This document shows positions 21,129-28,331 of a stretch of DNA of 32,000 nt, piece after piece. Both the position numbers and the translations under genes were made by a program. How positions within the stretch are numbered: the stretch's first letter is position 1; each line of letters begins with the position of its first letter. Source of the DNA: Candidatus Syntropharchaeum caldarium (lineage in GTDB: Archaea; Halobacteriota; Syntropharchaeia; Syntropharchaeales; Syntropharchaeaceae); assembly GCA_001766815.1 (NCBI GenBank), contig LYOS01000002.1, forward strand, positions 324,577 through 356,576. The letters run 5' to 3'. Under the pieces are notes generated by a model. The model searched no databases. It was not told the DNA's origin and saw nothing but the letters and a program-made list of their open reading frames with translations.

Positions 21129-21866
21129 ATGGGCGTCAGAAAACAGCAGGTTCAGGAACATAAACGGGAGCTTGATCATGTCGTCACAGAGTGGATGAAG
21201 ACTATAGGTATTCCAGAGCCATATTACATTCATATAAGCGATTTAAAGGATGGAGTTTACATATCAAAGCGCTCTCGATGGTTTTACGATGCCAGAAAAG
21301 GTGAATTTGTTCTTGAGATTACAACAAGCAAACTGTGCGAAGATCTGATCACAAATCACCTCAAAGGATGGTGCTCGCCAGAAAAAAAGCTTAAATTAGA
21401 ATGGGCACACTATAAAACACTTGCAGAAGAGTATATACTAAGTTGCAGGTCATTATACAGGCAGATTGAACAGGAGGTTGAAGAAAGTCTTCTCGTGATC
21501 AGAGATGAGGAAAGTTCACTGTTAATTACGGACAACTTCACCCGATTCATCTACCAGAATGCATTTTATCGTACGATGAAGATCTATGGTTTTGAGGAGA
21601 TGAAATACCAGATCAGAGAAGACGGGGATAACGCCGAGCTATGGCTTGGAAATACAGTACTTGCTTCAGGGACAAGAGACGAGATGGTTGTCCTCAATAA
21701 TATACACCATGCACTGATGGCATCATTTGGGCTGTATGCAGACGATGTCAAACGTATCCTTGAAAAGAAACGGGTACTTGACGATCTAAGGATCAGGCTT
21801 GTCTCGTATATGGATGAGTTTCTAAGGAAGAAACGGCTCAAAGGAAGATGTAATTATATCGGTTAA
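21129..21866 (+). CDS. Hypothetical cytoplasmic protein with no family recognised
   Basis: 245-aa ORF with protein-like composition, no TM segment and no motif I recognise. An internal ATG at 21195 (MKTIGIPEPYY) is an alternative start. It is transcribed divergently from the archaeosortase-like pair. Confidence 0.55.
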   Translation: MGVRKQQVQEHKRELDHVVTEWMKTIGIPEPYYIHISDLKDGVYISKRSRWFYDARKGEFVLEITTSKLCEDLITNHLKGWCSPEKKLKLEWAHYKTLAEEYILSCRSLYRQIEQEVEESLLVIRDEESSLLITDNFTRFIYQNAFYRTMKIYGFEEMKYQIREDGDNAELWLGNTVLASGTRDEMVVLNNIHHALMASFGLYADDVKRILEKKRVLDDLRIRLVSYMDEFLRKKRLKGRCNYIG

Positions 21867-21962
21867 CCATGAAATGGAAAAAAGGAAAAGTTTTTATTAT
21901 CATCCTCCCGTTTTTAAATCTGATAATATTCATCTGTACTTATAGTAAGGGACGGGAATACC

Positions 21963-23027
21963 ATGTTGATAGGTGATTATGGAGAGATTAAAACCTTTGA
22001 AGATTTAAAGACTGAGATCATCGATGTAGATCTCTGCGCAGGGTGTGGAACATGTGCTGCCTTCTGTGAAGCTATCGAGATGGATGGGGATACACCGAAG
22101 ATGGTGGGGGACTGTGTGCTCGTTAGAGGTGCATTGAAGTGTGGAACGTGTTATACCGTCTGTCCAAAGCGCTCAAACGGTGATGCAACGATCATCGAAA
22201 AGTTCCTATCCCGTGAGAAGCGGGATGAACTCTTTGGTAACTATGTTGGGGTGTATGCAGTTAAGGCTACAAACCAGGATATAGTAGCAAAGGCACAGGA
22301 TGGCGGTGCAGTATCTGCGATAATTCACCATCTGCTTTCAACGGGTGCGATTGACTGTGGTGTAATCTCACAACGTGACGAGAAGTGGCGCGCATCCCCG
22401 CTTGTGGTAACAGCGCCCGAGGATGTTACAAAAGGTAGTGGGACACGATATGCAGTCTCGCCCAATGTCGAGATGCTTGGTGAGGTGATAAAGGATGAAA
22501 AACTGCGCGTTGCAATTGTTGGAACGCCCTGCCAGGTCAAAGGCGTTAGAAACCTCCAGTCCAAACTGCTTGAGGTAATCGAAGATATCGAGATCTTGAA
22601 TATCGGGTTGTTTTGCACTGAAAACTTCAGATATGACAGTTTCATCGAGTACATGACCCCCAGGCTTGAAGAAGGGGGACTCAGGATCGAAGACGTGACA
22701 AAGACCGAGATCACAAAGGGCAAGTTCTTCTTCAGAAGTCCGAAGGGTGATGTGAGTCTTAAGATCGCAGAACTTGAACCTATAATTCCGACCAACTGTA
22801 GAAATTGTATCGATTTCTCAGCAGAGCTTGCAGATATTTCTGTTGGGTCGGTAGGTGCACCAAATGGGTGGTCAACTGTTATCACACGCAACAGTAGATC
22901 GGATGAAATCGTCAAGAAGATGATTGAAGAGGGGTTGTTCGAGGTGCAGGATGTGAACATCAAGATCGTACACATGCTCTGTAAAAACAAGCGGAAGCGG
23001 CTTGAGAAGGAGGAGGCGGGTGAATAA
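21963..23027 (+). CDS. FrhB/FdhB-family F420-interacting flavo-iron-sulfur protein with an N-terminal 2x[4Fe-4S] ferredoxin domain
   Basis: 354 aa. CAGCGTCAAFC and CGTCYTVCP motifs. It then shows FrhB-type sequence: GNYVGVYAVKATNQDIVAKAQDGGAVSAII...GSGTRYAVSP...VAIVGTPCQVKGVRNL...IGLFCTENF. Confidence 0.8.
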   Translation: MLIGDYGEIKTFEDLKTEIIDVDLCAGCGTCAAFCEAIEMDGDTPKMVGDCVLVRGALKCGTCYTVCPKRSNGDATIIEKFLSREKRDELFGNYVGVYAVKATNQDIVAKAQDGGAVSAIIHHLLSTGAIDCGVISQRDEKWRASPLVVTAPEDVTKGSGTRYAVSPNVEMLGEVIKDEKLRVAIVGTPCQVKGVRNLQSKLLEVIEDIEILNIGLFCTENFRYDSFIEYMTPRLEEGGLRIEDVTKTEITKGKFFFRSPKGDVSLKIAELEPIIPTNCRNCIDFSAELADISVGSVGAPNGWSTVITRNSRSDEIVKKMIEEGLFEVQDVNIKIVHMLCKNKRKRLEKEEAGE

Positions 23028-24700
23028 TGAACGGTGAGAAAGCAGTTGTGTACAACTGTTACTGTGCACTCTCAGAGGTCGAGTTTGAAGAGATGAGGGA
23101 TGATCTGGAAGCGATAGATGGTGTTGAACTGGTGCTGGATGGTTATGATCTCTGCTCTGAATCAGGGCAGAATGATTTGATAAACGAGATCAGTGCCAGA
23201 AATATAAAAAAACTTCTTTTGATCTGCAGTGCTGCTTCGATGCCTGAGCAGACGTTCAATCGGGTTCAGAACGAGACAGGGGTGCGTCCGATTCCGATAA
23301 TAGCAGATGAGAAGGGAACGCTTATTGAAGAAGTAAAGAACGCAATTCAAAATCCGCCTGAGGCAGCAACTATTGAGGATGTTGTACCTGCGGCACTCGT
23401 GATAGGAGGTGGAATTGCCGGGATTCAGGCAGCCCTTGATATCGCAGATGCAGGCTTTAAGGTTTATCTTGTGGAGCGAGAACCTTCTGTCGGTGGACAC
23501 ATGTCCCAGCTTGATAAAACCTTCCCAACACTGGATTGTTCAGCCTGTATCCTGACACCGAAGATGGTTGATGTGGGGAGACATCCGAATATTGATCTCA
23601 TGACCTATTCCGAGGTTATTAAGACCGAAGGATCTGCAGGCCACTTCAAGGTCAGGGTTCGAAAGAAACCAAGATACGTAGATATTAATAAGTGCACGGG
23701 ATGCGGTCTCTGTGCCGATGCGTGCCGTCTTAAAGGCAAGATACCCAATTCTTTTGATGTTGATATGGGAAAAAGAGGCGCCATTTATGTTCCATTCCCA
23801 CAGGCAGTACCTCTGAAATATACAATTGATGCATCAAGATGTCTTTTCTTATCAAAGGGTAAGTGTGGTAAAGCACCATCCTGTCTGGAAGCCTGCGAGC
23901 GGGATGCAATAGATTTCGAGCAGAAAGAGGAGATTGTTGAACTGGATGTAGGTGCGATCGTGGTTGCAACTGGATATGATCAGTTTGATGCAACGCTCAA
24001 GCCCGAGTATGGTTATGGTGATTACGATAACGTAATATCAGGCCTGGAGTTCGAGCGGCTCTGCTCTGCCTCTGGACCAACAGCAGGCAACGTTGTGATC
24101 AATGGTAAGACACCCACCAGCGTTGTATTCATTCAGTGCGTTGGATCGAGGGATAAAAACCAGAACCCATACTGCTCAAGGGTCTGCTGCATGTACGCTG
24201 CAAAACAGGCGCACCTTGTCCATGAGAAGATCCCTGGCGCATCGATCATGATCTGTTATATGGATGTCAGGGCATTTGGAAAAGGATATGAAGAGTTCTA
24301 CGAGCGTGTTCAGCGAGATAATGTCCTGTATGTGCGAGGAAATCCATCTGAGGTCTACAGGAAAGGAGATATGCTCATAGTGCGTGGAGAGGATACGCTT
24401 ACAGGCGAGGCATACGAGAAAGAAGCAGACCTCGTGGTGCTTGCAACCGGGATCACGCCAAGAGCGGATGCAGATCGTATGGCAGAGATTCTTGGTATAG
24501 AACGCGACAAGGAAGGTTTCTTCTCAGTTGCAGATCCTCAGCACTCGATCGAGTCATTGCGGGAAGGGATCTTTTTAGCGGGTTGCTGCCAGTCACCGAA
24601 GGATATACCTGATACGGTAGCTCATGCCTCAGGTGCTGCTGCAAAGGCCGCGATTTTGCTTTCCAGATCCAGCAAATACAAAGAGGAGGTTGTAGCATGA
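23027..24700 (+). CDS. hdrA: HdrA-like flavoprotein, truncated form (no C-terminal ferredoxin domain, divergent N-terminal domain)
   Basis: 557 aa. FAD-binding VIGGGIAGIQAALDIADAGFKVYLVEREPSVGGHM. TLDCSACILTPKM. Inserted ferredoxin domain (CTGCGLCADAC, CLEACERDAI). IQCVGSRD...YCSRVCCMY and FLAGCCQSPKDI. It ends shortly after the TrxR-like fold. Its start overlaps the frhB-like stop (TAATG). Confidence 0.85.
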   Translation: MNGEKAVVYNCYCALSEVEFEEMRDDLEAIDGVELVLDGYDLCSESGQNDLINEISARNIKKLLLICSAASMPEQTFNRVQNETGVRPIPIIADEKGTLIEEVKNAIQNPPEAATIEDVVPAALVIGGGIAGIQAALDIADAGFKVYLVEREPSVGGHMSQLDKTFPTLDCSACILTPKMVDVGRHPNIDLMTYSEVIKTEGSAGHFKVRVRKKPRYVDINKCTGCGLCADACRLKGKIPNSFDVDMGKRGAIYVPFPQAVPLKYTIDASRCLFLSKGKCGKAPSCLEACERDAIDFEQKEEIVELDVGAIVVATGYDQFDATLKPEYGYGDYDNVISGLEFERLCSASGPTAGNVVINGKTPTSVVFIQCVGSRDKNQNPYCSRVCCMYAAKQAHLVHEKIPGASIMICYMDVRAFGKGYEEFYERVQRDNVLYVRGNPSEVYRKGDMLIVRGEDTLTGEAYEKEADLVVLATGITPRADADRMAEILGIERDKEGFFSVADPQHSIESLREGIFLAGCCQSPKDIPDTVAHASGAAAKAAILLSRSSKYKEEVVA

Positions 24701-26631
24701 TCGGTGTTTACGTCTGTCACTGTGGCATCAATATCGCATCGGTAGTTGATGTTAAGGCAGTTGCCGAGTTTGCGAGGACGCTTCCTGGCGTTACGGTCGC
24801 GAAAGATTACCAGTATATGTGTTCTGATCCAGGACAGGAACTTATCAAGAACGACATCAAAGAACACGGGCTCAAAAGGGTTGTTGTCGCTGCTTGCTCG
24901 CCAAGGATGCATGAGCCAACGTTCAGGGTGGCAATCAGTGACGCCAATCTCAATCCATATCTGCTTGAGGTTGCGAACATCAGAGAACACTGCTCATGGG
25001 TTCACCATGACAGGGAAGCTGCCACAGCAAAGGCAAAGGATCTTGTACAGAGTGCAGTCTCGAAGGCGATGCTCTTAACACCGCTTGAGTCAAGAGAGGT
25101 CGGCGTCACGCCAAGATCACTTGTTATCGGTGGTGGAATTGCGGGACTCGAAGCAGCACTTGATATCGCAGATGCAGGCTTCAAGGTTTATCTTGTGGAG
25201 CGTGAAGCCACGCTTGGTGGACATGCAGCCCAGATTGAACGTCTTTTCCCAGCAATGGAAGATGCATCGTGTCTCGTCCTCCCAAAGATGGCATCTGTGA
25301 TGGAACATCCAAATATCGAGGTGATGACCGATTCCGAGATTTTGGAGGTTGACGGCTATGTCGGTAATTTTGAGGTCACGGTTGTAAAACACCCAAGATA
25401 TGTCGATACCACAAAATGTACCGCCTGCGGCAAGTGTGAAGAGGTGTGTCCCGTAGATGTTGATGATGCGTTCAATCAAAATTTGAAAACTCGTAAGGCG
25501 ATTTACATTCCATTCAAGTCTGCTGTGCCACCTACCTACAGGATCGATCCAGCAAATTGTCTCTATTTCCAGGATGGATCGTGTAAGAAGTGTGTGGATG
25601 TATGTTCGGATGGAGCGATAAACCTTGAAGAAGAGGAAGTAAAGACGAAGCTTGAGGTTGGTACTATTGTAATTGCTACCGGATATGAGCCGTTTGATGC
25701 ACGAAACAAACCTGAGTTTGGATATGGGCAGTATGATAATGTGATAACAGGGCTTGAACTTGAGCGCATGCTTGCAAAGGATGGGCCAACAGGTGGCAAA
25801 GTCTTTGTCAAGGATAAAGAACCAGAAAAGATCGGTTTTATTCAATGTGTTGGTTCAAGGGATAAGCAGGTTGGCAATGAGTACTGTTCAAGGGTCTGCT
25901 GCATGTACACCGCCAAGCAGGCGAGAATGCTCCGTGAGATGTATCCAGATGCACTTGTAAAGGTCTTTTTCATGGACGTCAGGGCGTATGGAAAAGGGTA
26001 TGAGGAGTTCTGGGAGGAAACACAGCGAAGTGGTGTGATCTATGTCAGAAGTAACCCGTCAGAGGTGTATAGAAGGGGAGACAGGGTTGTGCTGCGTGGA
26101 GAGGATACACTCATGGGTGAAGCATTTGAGGAGGAGTTTGACCTTCTTGTACTTGCAACAGGGCTTGTTCCAAGAGCAGATACCCGCGACTTTGGAAACC
26201 TCCTGAAGGTCTCAAGGAGTGGTGATGGTTTCTATCTTGAGGCACATCCGAAGCTAAGACCTGTTGATACAGCATCTGACGGTGTCTATCTTGCAGGGTG
26301 CTGTCAGGGACCAAAAGACATTACAGATACAATCTCACAGGCGAACGGTACCGCTATAAAGGCGTGCATACCATTATTTGTCGGCAAGGTCTCGATCGAG
26401 CCCACGACCTCGATGATCGATAGCCTGATATGTTCGGGATGTCGGGTCTGCGAAGGGATCTGCACATACGGTGCCCTTTCTTTCGATCCTGAGATGGGTG
26501 TCATGACGGTCAACGAGGTGCTCTGCAAGGGATGCGGCTCGTGCGCATCAGCATGTCCGTCCAGCGCAATCTCCATGAAACACTTCCTGGATCAGCAGAT
26601 CTTCGCGCAGATCGAGGCGATAGTGATCTAA
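24697..26631 (+). CDS. hdrA: Heterodisulfide reductase subunit A-type flavoprotein, full-length architecture
   Basis: 644 aa. Canonical N-terminus MIGVYVCHCGINIAS...ACSPRMHEPTF...NIREHCSWVH. FAD domain. Inserted ferredoxin domain (CTACGKCEEVCP). C-terminal 2x[4Fe-4S] (CSGCRVCEGIC, CKGCGSCASACP). ATGA overlap with the upstream hdrA-like gene. Confidence 0.9.
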   Translation: MIGVYVCHCGINIASVVDVKAVAEFARTLPGVTVAKDYQYMCSDPGQELIKNDIKEHGLKRVVVAACSPRMHEPTFRVAISDANLNPYLLEVANIREHCSWVHHDREAATAKAKDLVQSAVSKAMLLTPLESREVGVTPRSLVIGGGIAGLEAALDIADAGFKVYLVEREATLGGHAAQIERLFPAMEDASCLVLPKMASVMEHPNIEVMTDSEILEVDGYVGNFEVTVVKHPRYVDTTKCTACGKCEEVCPVDVDDAFNQNLKTRKAIYIPFKSAVPPTYRIDPANCLYFQDGSCKKCVDVCSDGAINLEEEEVKTKLEVGTIVIATGYEPFDARNKPEFGYGQYDNVITGLELERMLAKDGPTGGKVFVKDKEPEKIGFIQCVGSRDKQVGNEYCSRVCCMYTAKQARMLREMYPDALVKVFFMDVRAYGKGYEEFWEETQRSGVIYVRSNPSEVYRRGDRVVLRGEDTLMGEAFEEEFDLLVLATGLVPRADTRDFGNLLKVSRSGDGFYLEAHPKLRPVDTASDGVYLAGCCQGPKDITDTISQANGTAIKACIPLFVGKVSIEPTTSMIDSLICSGCRVCEGICTYGALSFDPEMGVMTVNEVLCKGCGSCASACPSSAISMKHFLDQQIFAQIEAIVI

Positions 26632-26637
26632 CTCTGG

Positions 26638-27762
26638 GTGATGATCGGTATTGTATTTCACGGTGCAGAAGTGATCGATTCAGGGGAGGCGCAGCAGATA
26701 CTCAAGATGCTTCCTCTGATCACCCATGACTTTAAAGCGTTTCTTGGTGGAATAAGCGGCAAAACTGCGGTAATCGATGCAGGACTCACCGATCTGATTG
26801 ATATAACCAGGCATAAACTCCCAAGTGCGCTTATTACAGAGCTTATCGAGAACGGCTATGATTTTATCCTTCTTTTGAACCATGCAAAGACTGAAAAAAG
26901 CGGGATTTCACTTGGTGGCGAGATTTTCAGGCGCGTGAAGTCACGAATAAGAGCCAGTTTTTCTTTTGTGCAGATCGACTATCATGGCTTTATCGTGCCA
27001 TGGCAGGTTGAAGATGAGAAGCTCTACACTCAGATCCGAGAAAGTCTTGAATTGAGTGAGATCGCACCACCAGAGCCTGAAAACCGCGTGGTACGAGAAG
27101 GGGCGCTTGTTAGAAGAATCGTCGATGGCGTGGAACCTGGTGAGAAAATCCTTGTGGATGGTATTGTGATCGGGATCGCAGAATCTGAGGATCTTACCAT
27201 CATCGAAGATGGAGGGAAGATAATTGGGCTCGAAGGGGGGCGTATCATCGATGAGAATCTTCTGAAGTTTGATCGGGTCAATCTGGCATCCTCGATGGTG
27301 AAGAGTGTCCGGTACTTCAGGGAACATCTGCCAGAAAAGATAGGAACGTTCAAACGAGGACCTGTCGACGGCAAAGTTGCCCTGCTCTTCACGGCTGAAC
27401 GCGTCTTTGAGATCTTTGAGCACGTGAATGGCGTTGTTACGATCGGTGATGATACCACCGCGATTGTAGCCGATATTGCAACAAGATTTGGCGTACCTGT
27501 TCTTGGAATTACAGACGGTGATATTGATGGGCTGATTCCACAGATTGGTGCTGGAGGGAAAGAGGATTTTGAGAAGATTGTACCACCTGGCTCACTTATA
27601 CTTCGTGTCAGGGCTGAATCTGATGACGAGATTGGTTACAGGATACAGGAAGAGATATTTGGAGGAGAGGAGATGATTGAACTTGATTTTAACATGCTGT
27701 GTGATCGGGTGCTTGAGATCGTGAACCACGACCTAGTCTGGATGGTCAGGGGAAGCGTATGA
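26638..27762 (+). CDS. Uncharacterised conserved-looking protein (three-part: alpha/beta N-domain, beta-rich middle, acidic-motif C-domain)
   Basis: 374 aa. The track start is GTG at 26638; an ATG lies at 26641. No family recognised with confidence. The C-terminal region VVTIGDDTTAIVADIATRFGVPVLGITDGDIDG (TDGDIDG at 27511-27531) looks like a metal-binding acidic motif. It begins 6 nt after the hdrA stop, and its own stop overlaps the ruvA start (ATGA). Confidence 0.6.
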   Translation: MMIGIVFHGAEVIDSGEAQQILKMLPLITHDFKAFLGGISGKTAVIDAGLTDLIDITRHKLPSALITELIENGYDFILLLNHAKTEKSGISLGGEIFRRVKSRIRASFSFVQIDYHGFIVPWQVEDEKLYTQIRESLELSEIAPPEPENRVVREGALVRRIVDGVEPGEKILVDGIVIGIAESEDLTIIEDGGKIIGLEGGRIIDENLLKFDRVNLASSMVKSVRYFREHLPEKIGTFKRGPVDGKVALLFTAERVFEIFEHVNGVVTIGDDTTAIVADIATRFGVPVLGITDGDIDGLIPQIGAGGKEDFEKIVPPGSLILRVRAESDDEIGYRIQEEIFGGEEMIELDFNMLCDRVLEIVNHDLVWMVRGSV

Positions 27763-28331
27763 TTGCACACATCAGGGGTGTGGTGGAGGGGATGGAGGAG
27801 GATGCAGTTGTGGTTGATGTGAATGGGATTGGCTACCGCATTTTTGTTCCAGCAGACATCATAGAGTCGTTGGGAGGGTGCGGAGAAGAGATCAAGCTTC
27901 TCACACATCTTCAGATGAAGGATGATGAGATGGTGCTCTATGGATTCCTTGACTCTTATGAACTTGAGATCTTTCAGGCGCTTCTTGGTGTATCAGGGGT
28001 TGGAGCAAAGACCGCACTCACGATCCTCTCATCCCTCAAGCCAGATCTGCTGCAATCAGCTGTTATTAGTGGAGATATTGATAAATTAACTTCGATCAAA
28101 GGGATTGGTAAAAAAACCGCATCCAGAATCGTGCTTGAGCTTGGGGAGAGGCTTGTCGTCCGAAAAACCCTTCCGAAAAAGTTCAATGATGCGATAGAGG
28201 GGCTTGTTACGCTTGGGTATAGTAAAAATGAAGCCGAGAATGTAGTCAAGCAGATTCTCGATGAGAAAGGCGAGGAGATTTCGGTGGAAGATATAATAAA
28301 AGAGGGGTTGAGGAGGTTAACCTCCAATTAA
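27759..28331 (+). CDS. ruvA: Holliday junction DNA-binding protein RuvA (bacterial type; all three domains)
   Basis: 190 aa. Domain I: [31 protein letters not shown]. Domain II helix-hairpin-helix pair: [17 protein letters not shown] ... [19 protein letters not shown]. Domain III: [23 protein letters not shown]. Confidence 0.8.

Follow-up and report, generated by a model that had tools for sequence, protein, structure and literature searches.

The window analyzed here is a stretch of 32,000 nucleotides from Candidatus Syntropharchaeum caldarium (G000:C2:324577-356576), in which an frhB-like gene is followed by two unlike hdrA genes encoding a protein of 557 amino acids (hereafter HdrA′) and a protein of 644 amino acids (hereafter HdrA). 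In the energy metabolism of methanogens, and of archaea that oxidize methane or alkanes, a central part is played by HdrA through flavin-based electron bifurcation. The cysteine losses of the two copies are complementary, in the source assembly (G000; 1.67 Mb, 96% complete, 10 contigs) as well as in a sister species (G077): HdrA has Asp at the position of Cys194, and HdrA′ is missing Cys103 together with the C-terminal ferredoxin domain. On balance, we consider it likely from these sequences that the three proteins would form a soluble F420-linked bifurcating or confurcating module built on an HdrA′/HdrA heterodimer with one working electron track. Cysteines of HdrA are numbered as in 5ODC, and Cys194 and Cys197 in this numbering correspond to Cys202 and Cys205 in M. 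marburgensis.

Translational coupling of the frhB-like and hdrA genes

The frhB-like gene (21963..23027, + strand, 354 aa) encodes an F420-reductase module whose N terminus carries a 2x[4Fe-4S] ferredoxin domain. On the same strand, it is followed by hdrA′ (23027..24700), a "core" copy with a canonical fold of the flavin adenine dinucleotide (FAD)-binding, thioredoxin reductase (TrxR) type, the Cys194/Cys197 pair, the HA4 motif, and the inserted ferredoxin domain, and then by hdrA (24697..26631), an "arm" copy whose N- and C-terminal ferredoxin domains are canonical and whose core is diverged, with Asp189 at the position of Cys194. The preliminary description of this locus had reported three translationally coupled genes, and this was confirmed: the open reading frames (ORFs) were recovered at these coordinates, and the TAATG and ATGA junctions could be read directly in the sequence. 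The frhB-like gene overlaps hdrA′ by 1 nt, hdrA′ overlaps hdrA by 4 nt, and each junction is preceded by a GGAGG ribosome-binding site.

Complementary losses in HdrA and HdrA′

HdrA aligns with residues 6-648 of 5ODC (E = 1e-233) and has all five N-terminal cysteines, the HA4 motif, the eight cysteines of the inserted ferredoxin domain, and the eight cysteines of the C-terminal ferredoxin domain. The complete HdrA architecture previously ascribed to it stands as far as the domains are concerned, but not for the Cys pair. The positions of Cys194 and Cys197 are Asp and Cys in a degenerate motif, Asp189-Ala-Ser-Cys192 (25261..25272, + strand, located by alignment), and the G077 ortholog carries the same substitution. 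We compared the mean identity of each domain to nine canonical full-length HdrAs with the range for canonical proteins. HdrA gave 0.69 for the N-terminal domain (N-domain; canonical, 0.70-0.74) and 0.58 for the C-terminal ferredoxin domain (0.52-0.64), and values of 0.56 for TrxR-a (0.76-0.78) and 0.45 for the inserted ferredoxin domain (0.61-0.71). The C-terminal 2x[4Fe-4S] ferredoxin domain (26404..26628, + strand; Pfam Fer4_7, residues 579-624) is the only such domain in the pair and is the most conserved domain between the two species (91% identity).

HdrA′ aligns with residues 6-576 of 5ODC with a gap at the NIREHCSWVH segment, which agrees with the earlier observation that this segment and the C-terminal 2x[4Fe-4S] domain are missing. 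Its FAD/TrxR fold and inserted ferredoxin domain were also as described; of the four N-terminal cysteines said to be aligned, three are, and the fourth is offset by one residue. An equivalent of Cys103 is absent, as is the segment. Both positions of the Cys194/Cys197 pair are Cys (by alignment, Cys171-x-x-Cys174; codons at 23537..23548, + strand), and HA4 and all eight cysteines of the inserted ferredoxin domain are present, with the same result in G077. The four cysteines of the HA4 motif, CX12CX3CC, are found in both copies of both species, and both copies have the GxGxxG FAD-binding TrxR-like fold according to Pfam Pyr_redox_2 and FAD motifs and the 5ODC alignment. Measured against the same canonical HdrAs and ranges, HdrA′ showed identities of 0.77 in TrxR-a and 0.68 in the inserted ferredoxin domain, and one of 0.22 in the N-domain. 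Among the NCBIfam models, HdrA′ scored best with that of HdrA2, NF040770 (592 bits, cut-off 1100), with which HdrA gave 866 bits; both copies scored lower with NF041778 and NF041891. The HdrA match stops at position 640 of the 777 positions of NF040770, indicating that no MvhD is fused to this copy.

The relic N-domain of HdrA′ (residues 1-110; 23027..23356, + strand) keeps C11, C13, C43, and C67 in both species. Its comparison with the canonical HdrA N-domain by hhalign gave a probability of 96.9% (E = 1.4e-10); by this profile match, it is a true, highly diverged HdrA N-domain. We also considered whether it is a built-in substitute for MvhD, and rejected this because the hhalign probability for MvhD was 0.2%, compared with 96.9% for the HdrA N-domain. 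A search with this domain against 1.84 billion representative sequences returned its own ortholog and two weak HdrA-like fragments only, and neither the 79 genomes of the class nor the GTDB species representatives yielded another HdrA′ bearing this N-terminal extension. A further ortholog of HdrA′, intact and 547 aa long, came from a metagenome; the ortholog with 70% identity carries the label Syntrophoarchaeum. An AlphaFold model of HdrA′, computed from an alignment that included canonical HdrAs, had a mean predicted local distance difference test score of 72 and a regular beta-alpha fold in the N-domain, and it superposed on solved HdrA over residues ~3-553 (Z ~42).

The two hdrA genes also share a direct repeat of 121 nt (79% identity; 23394-23514 in hdrA′ and 25118-25238 in hdrA) that spans the FAD-binding motif. 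Its core of 45 nt differs by one base, and codon identity is 21/31 against a background of 0.51. The case for gene conversion between the copies is weak; p was ~0.04 without correction for the choice of the segment compared, and the repeat lies within the conserved FAD motif.

Conservation and selection within the genus

G077 has the same gene order and coupling as G000, with identities of 82% for the frhB-like gene, 70% for hdrA′ (547 aa), 83% for hdrA (644 aa), and 62% for the DUF2117 gene that follows hdrA (see below). The ratios of nonsynonymous to synonymous substitution rates (dN/dS) between the two genomes were 0.08, 0.12, 0.06, and 0.12, respectively. In the N-domain of HdrA′, the proportion of nonsynonymous differences (pN) was 0.275 and that of synonymous differences (pS) was 0.68. 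The S. butanivorans orthologs of FrhB and the DUF2117 protein are SBU_001501 and SBU_001504, and the layout agrees with that of G077.

A short/long rule across HdrA pairs

Fourteen short/long HdrA pairs were tabulated: six from Anaerolineae, five from anaerobic methanotrophic archaea of group 1 (ANME-1), one from Methanosarcinales, one from an uncultured bacterium, and that of the ANME-1 genome G044. In all 14 pairs, the short copy is without the arm domains and has the Cys pair, HA4, and the inserted ferredoxin domain, and the long copy has kept all arm cysteines and lost both cysteines of the pair. The inserted ferredoxin domain is also lost from the long copy in about half of them. Judged by the electron path seen in cryo-EM structures (see below), the long copies keep the elements of the arm and the short copies those of the protomer that an arm serves, so that one complete track would be left in the HdrA′/HdrA heterodimer. 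A fused HdrA of 999 aa in G000 fits the same rule. The pair of the cassette follows the direction of the rule, its reduction is partial, and it is the least reduced example that we found. The preliminary description proposed an obligate asymmetric HdrA/HdrA′ pair; the complementary losses, the conservation in the sister species, the purifying selection, and this shared rule all suggest that it is one.

Quick maximum-likelihood trees made with IQ-TREE, which contain some long branches, placed HdrA′ inside a clade of short copies, with values of 95-97 in the Shimodaira-Hasegawa-like approximate likelihood ratio test (SH-aLRT), together with a family of ~440 aa and the short copies of G023, L158, and L159. 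HdrA branches beside the long copies of these same three FrhB-linked ANME-1 clusters. The ANME-1 hdrA-frhB-hdrA clusters were also considered as possible orthologs and were rejected; both of their HdrA copies are fully canonical and belong to other clades, and mvhD and an NfnB/GltD-like gene come after them.

The gene order differs among the pairs. It is mvhD, short hdrA, HdrD-like, and long hdrA in Anaerolineae; frhB, ferredoxin-MvhD, HdrD-like, short, long, and mvhD in G023; and short, long, hdrC, and hdrB in L141. L159:2528-10858 (Methanophagales, JAUVZJ010000028.1) has cdhA, an frhB-like gene, a short hdrA of 440 aa, a long hdrA-MvhD fusion of 820 aa, and cdhB; in both L158 and L159, the genes for the alpha and epsilon subunits of carbon monoxide dehydrogenase (CODH) are thus separated by an asymmetric HdrA pair together with an F420 module. 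L154:27-7923 (uncultured bacterium, CALIBK010000105.1) consists of a molybdopterin oxidoreductase fragment, etfB, etfA, an acyl-CoA dehydrogenase gene, a short HdrA of 747 aa with an NfnB/GltD-like insertion, and a long HdrA of 644 aa, without hdrBC or mvhD; methylmalonyl-CoA mutase and thiolase genes come next.

The FrhB-like F420 module

The frhB-like protein matched Pfam FrhB_FdhB_N (77.9 bits, cut-off 22) and FrhB_FdhB_C (138.3 bits, cut-off 23.3), and by family membership it would be expected to bind FAD and turn over F420. Its N-terminal region has a CxxCxxCxxxC motif and a second Cys motif at residues 19-68, as in ferredoxins of the two-cluster type. It stayed below the NCBIfam equivalog cut-offs for FrhB (TIGR03289, 222 versus 331.5) and FpoF (NF040616, 173 versus 475), and there is neither frhA nor frhG near the gene. 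The best match among solved structures was chain B of 8RIU, the F420-reducing zeta subunit of CODH; it covers residues 11-338 with modest identity (E = 1.6e-55), and the alignment starts at residue 8. Its relationship with ElpB and FdhB is only distant (E = 2e-14 and 2e-11); it is nearer to FrhB and to the zeta subunit of CODH. The N-terminal ferredoxin domain, which had been described as an added domain, is the normal architecture of FpoF and of the CODH zeta subunit.

Orthologs with 82-86% identity occur in all three species of the genus (the third being G078), and identities elsewhere in the class are at most 42%; the best match from outside the genus is FrhB of the ANME-1 cluster G023. In the third species, the frhB ortholog in the region G078:C55:3979-7654 (L067) precedes a KaiC-like ATPase gene, after which come an ORF of 116 aa and another frhB-like gene (40% identity) that leaves the contig; the other two species are arranged differently. 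G000 has five FrhB paralogs, of which two lie by genes of Nuo/Fqo-type complexes, one by a glutamate synthase-like gene, and one alone; the fifth is that of the cassette, which is the sole linkage of FrhB with Hdr in this assembly. The possibility that the FrhB-like protein is the FqoF input of a membrane complex was rejected because both Nuo/Fqo-type clusters have FrhB-family genes of their own.

Hdr partners elsewhere in the genome

A profile search of the window and of the genome contigs found no hdrBC or mvhD in the operon or the window, as the preliminary description had noted, and none just outside the window in the same operon. The FlpD domain of the MvhD/ElpC connector is likewise absent from the operon, and the nearest one is ~21 kb away in another operon. 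Stand-alone mvhD genes occur four times: at C2:372k and C2:375k, in a MetFV-HdrA operon ~21 kb off, and at two places in an island on C3. The CCG domain of HdrB and HdrD is found at five loci of G000, none of them on this part of C2. Two of these loci, both on C3, are hdrC-hdrB pairs, each with an hdrA of its own alongside, and three are HdrD-like fusions, of which one is accompanied by a NarI-like membrane protein, one by etfB, etfA, and an acyl-CoA dehydrogenase gene, and one is solitary. We found no FrhB beside hdrABC in G000, in contrast to S. butanivorans. The absence of partners in cis, on which the preliminary description had remarked, is weak evidence that partners are missing, given that the fused HdrA of G000 is also partnerless and that hdrBC, HdrD-like, and mvhD genes are present elsewhere.

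The fused asymmetric HdrA of 999 aa (G000:C1:11863-14862; L083:5864-8863) has no adjoining redox partner. Its N-terminal half is of the short type, with the Cys pair, inserted ferredoxin domain, and HA4, and its C-terminal half is of the long type, with the N-domain cysteines and C-terminal ferredoxin domain and without the Cys pair and inserted ferredoxin domain. Its neighbors are the housekeeping genes for aspartate/ornithine carbamoyltransferase, adenosine kinase, and IF-2. The cluster of HdrD-like (382 aa, C6:14313-15461), EtfB, EtfA, and acyl-CoA dehydrogenase genes is on the - strand at G000:C6:11354-15461 (L080:5355-9462). At G000:C8:1-1057 (L168), a second metF, for methylenetetrahydrofolate reductase, lies at a contig start. 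Behind it, the first 38 residues of a flavoprotein, with a FAD motif like that of HdrA, are encoded before the gene leaves the contig, so that a further MetF-HdrA cluster may have been interrupted here by the assembly.

Proposed electron path

In the solved Mvh-, Fdh-, and Elp-Hdr complexes, the N-terminal and the C-terminal domain of each HdrA protomer form a mobile arm that serves the flavin of the other protomer. The path derived by cryo-electron microscopy (cryo-EM) of Elp-Hdr and Mvh-Hdr-Fmd leads from the donor to HA1 and HA2 and on to the [2Fe-2S] cluster of MvhD, and from there past the Cys202/Cys205 pair of the partner protomer to the partner FAD (PMC13580544). From this FAD, one electron passes via its own HA4 to HdrBC and the other via the arm shuttle cluster HA3 to the partner's inserted ferredoxin domain. 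The legends of the two cryo-EM papers disagree on which terminus holds HA1/2 and which holds HA3; the number of cysteines identifies the C-terminal domain as the one with two clusters. The Cys pair itself has been read in two ways: Chadwick et al. (2022) regarded Cys197 as a ligand of the partner's N-terminal cluster (PMC9012536), and a 2026 structure placed the pair between the MvhD cluster and the flavin (PMC13580544). The short/long rule fits the latter reading.

From these precedents and the cysteine inventory of the two copies, we infer a heterodimer in which HdrA would contribute the sole complete arm, consisting of the five-cysteine N-domain and the two-cluster C-terminal ferredoxin domain, and HdrA′ the sole complete core, consisting of FAD, the Cys pair, HA4, and the inserted ferredoxin domain, so that a single track would run from the HdrA arm to the HdrA′ core. 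The FrhB-like protein would be the port for F420/F420H2 and would dock onto the HdrA arm through its own N-terminal two-cluster ferredoxin domain. We place the port there because subunits of the 8RIU/8RJA type are anchored through an N-terminal ferredoxin domain and because Elp-Hdr offers a precedent: the feeding of F420H2 electrons into HdrA by an ElpB/FdhB-type subunit is proven in Elp-Hdr (PMC12350162), and the anchoring of FrhB-type plug-in F420 reductases by this domain is seen in structures 8RIU and 8RJA (PMC11493965). In this archaeon, as a butane oxidizer, the physiological direction would probably be confurcation toward F420, in line with the assumption of published models. The third redox partner and an MvhD-type connector would be supplied in trans. 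As the third partner, we would choose the hdrBC pairs, with heterodisulfide as the substrate, before the Etf-linked HdrD-like protein; with hdrBC on C3 as the partner, the module would provide the heterodisulfide-linked reaction needed by the organism.

Several points weigh against this path. All of the solved complexes need an MvhD-type [2Fe-2S] connector, and the cassette encodes none. The asymmetry is incomplete: HdrA keeps Cys197, the FAD motif, HA4, and the inserted ferredoxin domain, HdrA′ keeps a folded N-domain with four conserved cysteines, and Asp at the Cys194 position might remain able to bind a metal. There may be another track that works in part, or homodimers may form. In G078, the frhB ortholog (86%) lies between thermosome and KaiC-like genes and not before hdrA, and the 5′ side of the hdrA ortholog is hidden by a contig end, with frhB on another contig. 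Finally, in the literature covered, which did not extend to the 2016 species description, we found no biochemical, proteomic, or transcript evidence on the cassette.

Alternative explanations

The identity of the third partner leads to an alternative in which the pair serves the beta-oxidation system, that is, the 382-aa HdrD-like protein, EtfAB, and acyl-CoA dehydrogenase, and acts as an F420 counterpart of Bcd-EtfAB that couples butyryl-CoA/crotonyl-CoA and ferredoxin to F420. We give this alternative a modest chance. In G000, the HdrD-like gene adjoins etfB, etfA, and the acyl-CoA dehydrogenase gene, and its product shares 54% identity across its entire length with the CCG protein whose gene separates short from long hdrA in Anaerolineae, compared with 31-33% for the two other HdrD-like proteins; every Anaerolineae pair embeds this HdrD-like type. 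The L154 pair comes directly after etfB-etfA-acyl-CoA dehydrogenase, with a 644-aa long copy that has the inserted ferredoxin domain and no hdrBC or mvhD nearby, and HdrD-like, EtfB, and EtfA genes stand next to an HdrA of this clade in at least eight bacterial loci and in Ca. Alkanophaga (L058). This evidence, however, is gene neighborhood in distant relatives, and the two loci of G000 are on different contigs. The oxidative direction is also uphill at standard potentials (by our own estimate, donors at ~-10 and ~-500 mV versus F420 at ~-340 mV); the published NAD-based scheme has a similarly positive standard free energy, and published models assign the Etf-linked iron-sulfur oxidoreductase to quinone reduction. 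The specific proposal that FrhB-HdrA′-HdrA, in concert with the Etf-linked HdrD-like protein, EtfAB, and acyl-CoA dehydrogenase, does the work of Bcd-EtfAB in a form that depends on F420 and is coupled to ferredoxin has, in our estimate, a small chance of being correct; if true, it would supply the missing route for the high-potential electrons of acyl-CoA oxidation in alkane-oxidizing archaea, and the pair would also be a living intermediate between the symmetric HdrA homodimer and an obligate one-track heterodimer.

The remaining alternatives concern the pair itself. The two HdrAs might be separate enzymes encoded in one operon, namely an HdrA homodimer with FrhB as its donor and an HdrA′ homodimer resembling the bacterial sHdrA and serving another role. 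HdrA has every cofactor motif save Cys194, an arm-less HdrA-like protein has been solved (6TJR), and the ANME-1 hdrA-frhB-hdrA clusters encode two fully canonical HdrAs; yet the losses are complementary in two species and follow a rule seen in 14 other pairs and in fused single-chain versions, whose halves are inseparable. An HdrA homodimer would have no intact Cys pair on either side, and an HdrA′ homodimer would have no donor arm, which makes this explanation improbable. We regard as very unlikely a non-bifurcating ferredoxin:F420 oxidoreductase in which the HdrA pair is a wire or ferredoxin-docking platform for FrhB. Such an enzyme would suit the lack of a third-substrate module and of MvhD in cis, and alkane oxidizers do couple ferredoxin-type enzymes directly to F420 via FrhB-like modules (PMC11493965). 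Because FrhB-type modules have a ferredoxin domain of their own and attach directly, two large flavoproteins would be superfluous; moreover, the HA4 motif, which in solved complexes leads toward the high-potential partner, shows strict conservation in HdrA and HdrA′ alike, and homologous pairs normally come with a CCG-type partner and MvhD. The explanation that HdrA′ is a decaying duplicate, leaving FrhB and HdrA as the working unit, is close to refuted. Its C terminus is truncated, its N-domain has 22% identity to canonical HdrAs and almost no detectable relatives, and, of the three redox genes, it has diverged most between the species (71% identity). Nevertheless, its frame is intact in two species and in the metagenome ortholog, its dN/dS is 0.12 and pS clearly exceeds pN in the N-domain too, all cofactor cysteines of its core and the four cysteines of its N-domain are conserved, and its core lies closer to canonical HdrAs than the core of the full-length copy does. 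It also has a strong Shine-Dalgarno site and is coupled translationally on both sides. The pseudogene status that the preliminary description had allowed for is rejected by this dN/dS value and by the conserved cofactor residues.

Relation to known systems and significance

Chadwick et al. (2022) had already described tandem or fused heterodimeric HdrA with complementary losses, as well as HdrA clusters accompanied by an FdhB/FrhB homolog alone (PMC9012536); this design is not new. The HdrA5/6, HdrA12/13, and fused HdrA3/4 of ANME, and the related HdrL-type fusions, share with the cassette the short-then-long order, the direction of the complementary losses (arm domains gone from one copy, cysteines of the Cys197 region from the other), and, in some ANME-1, FrhB/FdhB (PMC9012536). 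Unlike these tandem HdrAs, the present pair is partially reduced, with an N-domain in the short copy and Cys197 and the inserted ferredoxin domain in the long copy. Unlike G023, L141, L159, and the Anaerolineae clusters, it has neither MvhD, free or fused, nor HdrBC or HdrD-like in cis, and this is what chiefly sets it apart.

Elp-Hdr of M. marburgensis (8RVU/8RVY, PMC12350162) and Fdh-Hdr-Fmd of Methanospirillum hungatei (7BKB) resemble the module proposed for the cassette in F420H2 oxidation by FrhB/FdhB. Their electrons enter HdrA via the arm ferredoxin domain, and both HdrAs of the cassette align to these chains. These complexes, however, are symmetric (HdrABC)2 assemblies with ElpA/FdhA, MvhD/ElpC, and HdrBC, none of which the cassette encodes. 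The CODH zeta subunit and the F420-reductase subunit of Fwd from Ca. Ethanoperedens thermophilum, also an alkane-oxidizing archaeon (8RIU, 8RJA, PMC11493965), have the same two-part build as the FrhB-like protein, that is, an N-terminal 2x[4Fe-4S] anchor and an FAD/[4Fe-4S] F420-reductase domain, but their host is CODH or formylmethanofuran dehydrogenase and not HdrA.

Within the genus, HdrABC-FrhB of Ca. S. butanivorans, which like that of ANME-1 and Methanoperedenaceae is assumed to transfer electrons from ferredoxin and coenzymes M and B (CoM-SH/CoB-SH) to F420 (PMC11543930), rests on another FrhB, SBU_000300 (clade FrhB4), beside hdrABC. The supplement of the 2024 paper lists SBU_001501 and mentions an HdrA context for one remaining FrhB homolog, with no analysis and without saying which one (PMC11543930). 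HdrA2B2C2 of Methanosarcina acetivorans, for which F420H2-linked Hdr chemistry has been reported (cited in PMC9012536), is the system behind the best-scoring model for both copies, NF040770, and both remain below its cut-off. The cassette differs from it in three ways: MvhD is not fused, hdrB2C2 is not next to it, and there are two unlike HdrA copies where that system has one. We would describe the cassette as a transitional, little-reduced asymmetric pair that is specific to the genus, with an F420 port and without an MvhD or CCG partner in cis.

The short/long rule offers independent evolutionary support for the cross-protomer path and the functional Cys pair proposed from the cryo-EM work of 2025-2026. 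As the least reduced pair found, the cassette is a natural system in which to study the order of losses. As the sole FrhB-Hdr linkage in the assembly, it is a prime candidate for the F420-coupled cofactor recycling assumed in published models of butane oxidation.

Flanking genes

A 96-nt AT-rich intergenic stretch 5′ of the frhB-like gene (21867..21962, + strand), with the TATA-like runs TTTTTATTA and TTTTTAAAT, is the sole sizeable gap on this strand before a run of five coupled genes and is presumed to be the promoter region. Directly upstream of it is a 245-aa ORF (21129-21866) that matched nothing in Pfam or NCBIfam and that G077 does not have upstream of its cassette. The end of the cassette had been set at 26631, but the coupled run goes on: 6 nt further is a DUF2117 gene (26638..27762, + strand; Pfam DUF2117, E = 5e-99), and a ruvA-like gene (27759..28331, + strand) overlaps it by 4 nt. 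The ruvA-like gene is the last of the co-directional run, which is ended by a convergent deoC beyond it.

The DUF2117 gene was called as 374 aa from a GTG. An ATG lies one codon after this GTG and matches the start in G077; this ATG is probably the true start and the GTG of the ORF finder wrong. DUF2117 is single-copy in 69 of the 79 genomes of the class and is also present in M. jannaschii and M. acetivorans. The three species of the genus all keep its junction with hdrA, a coupling peculiar to this genus; elsewhere, the gene is apart from the hdrA clusters examined. The translation has one cysteine. We considered this protein as a new redox subunit or third-substrate module, which is unlikely given its single-copy occurrence across the class and in methanogens, its lack of linkage outside the genus, and its one cysteine; it is probably a co-transcribed housekeeping neighbor.

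The ruvA-like gene does not follow DUF2117 in G077 or G078 and is thus outside the conserved unit. Its product matched Pfam RuvA_N, HHH_5, and RuvA_C and exceeded the cut-off of TIGR00084 (191 bits versus 85), being a complete, bacterial-type RuvA in an archaeal genome. The RuvA family is listed among the proteins enriched in Syntropharchaeia that encode alkyl-CoM reductase (supplement of the 2024 paper, PMC11543930).

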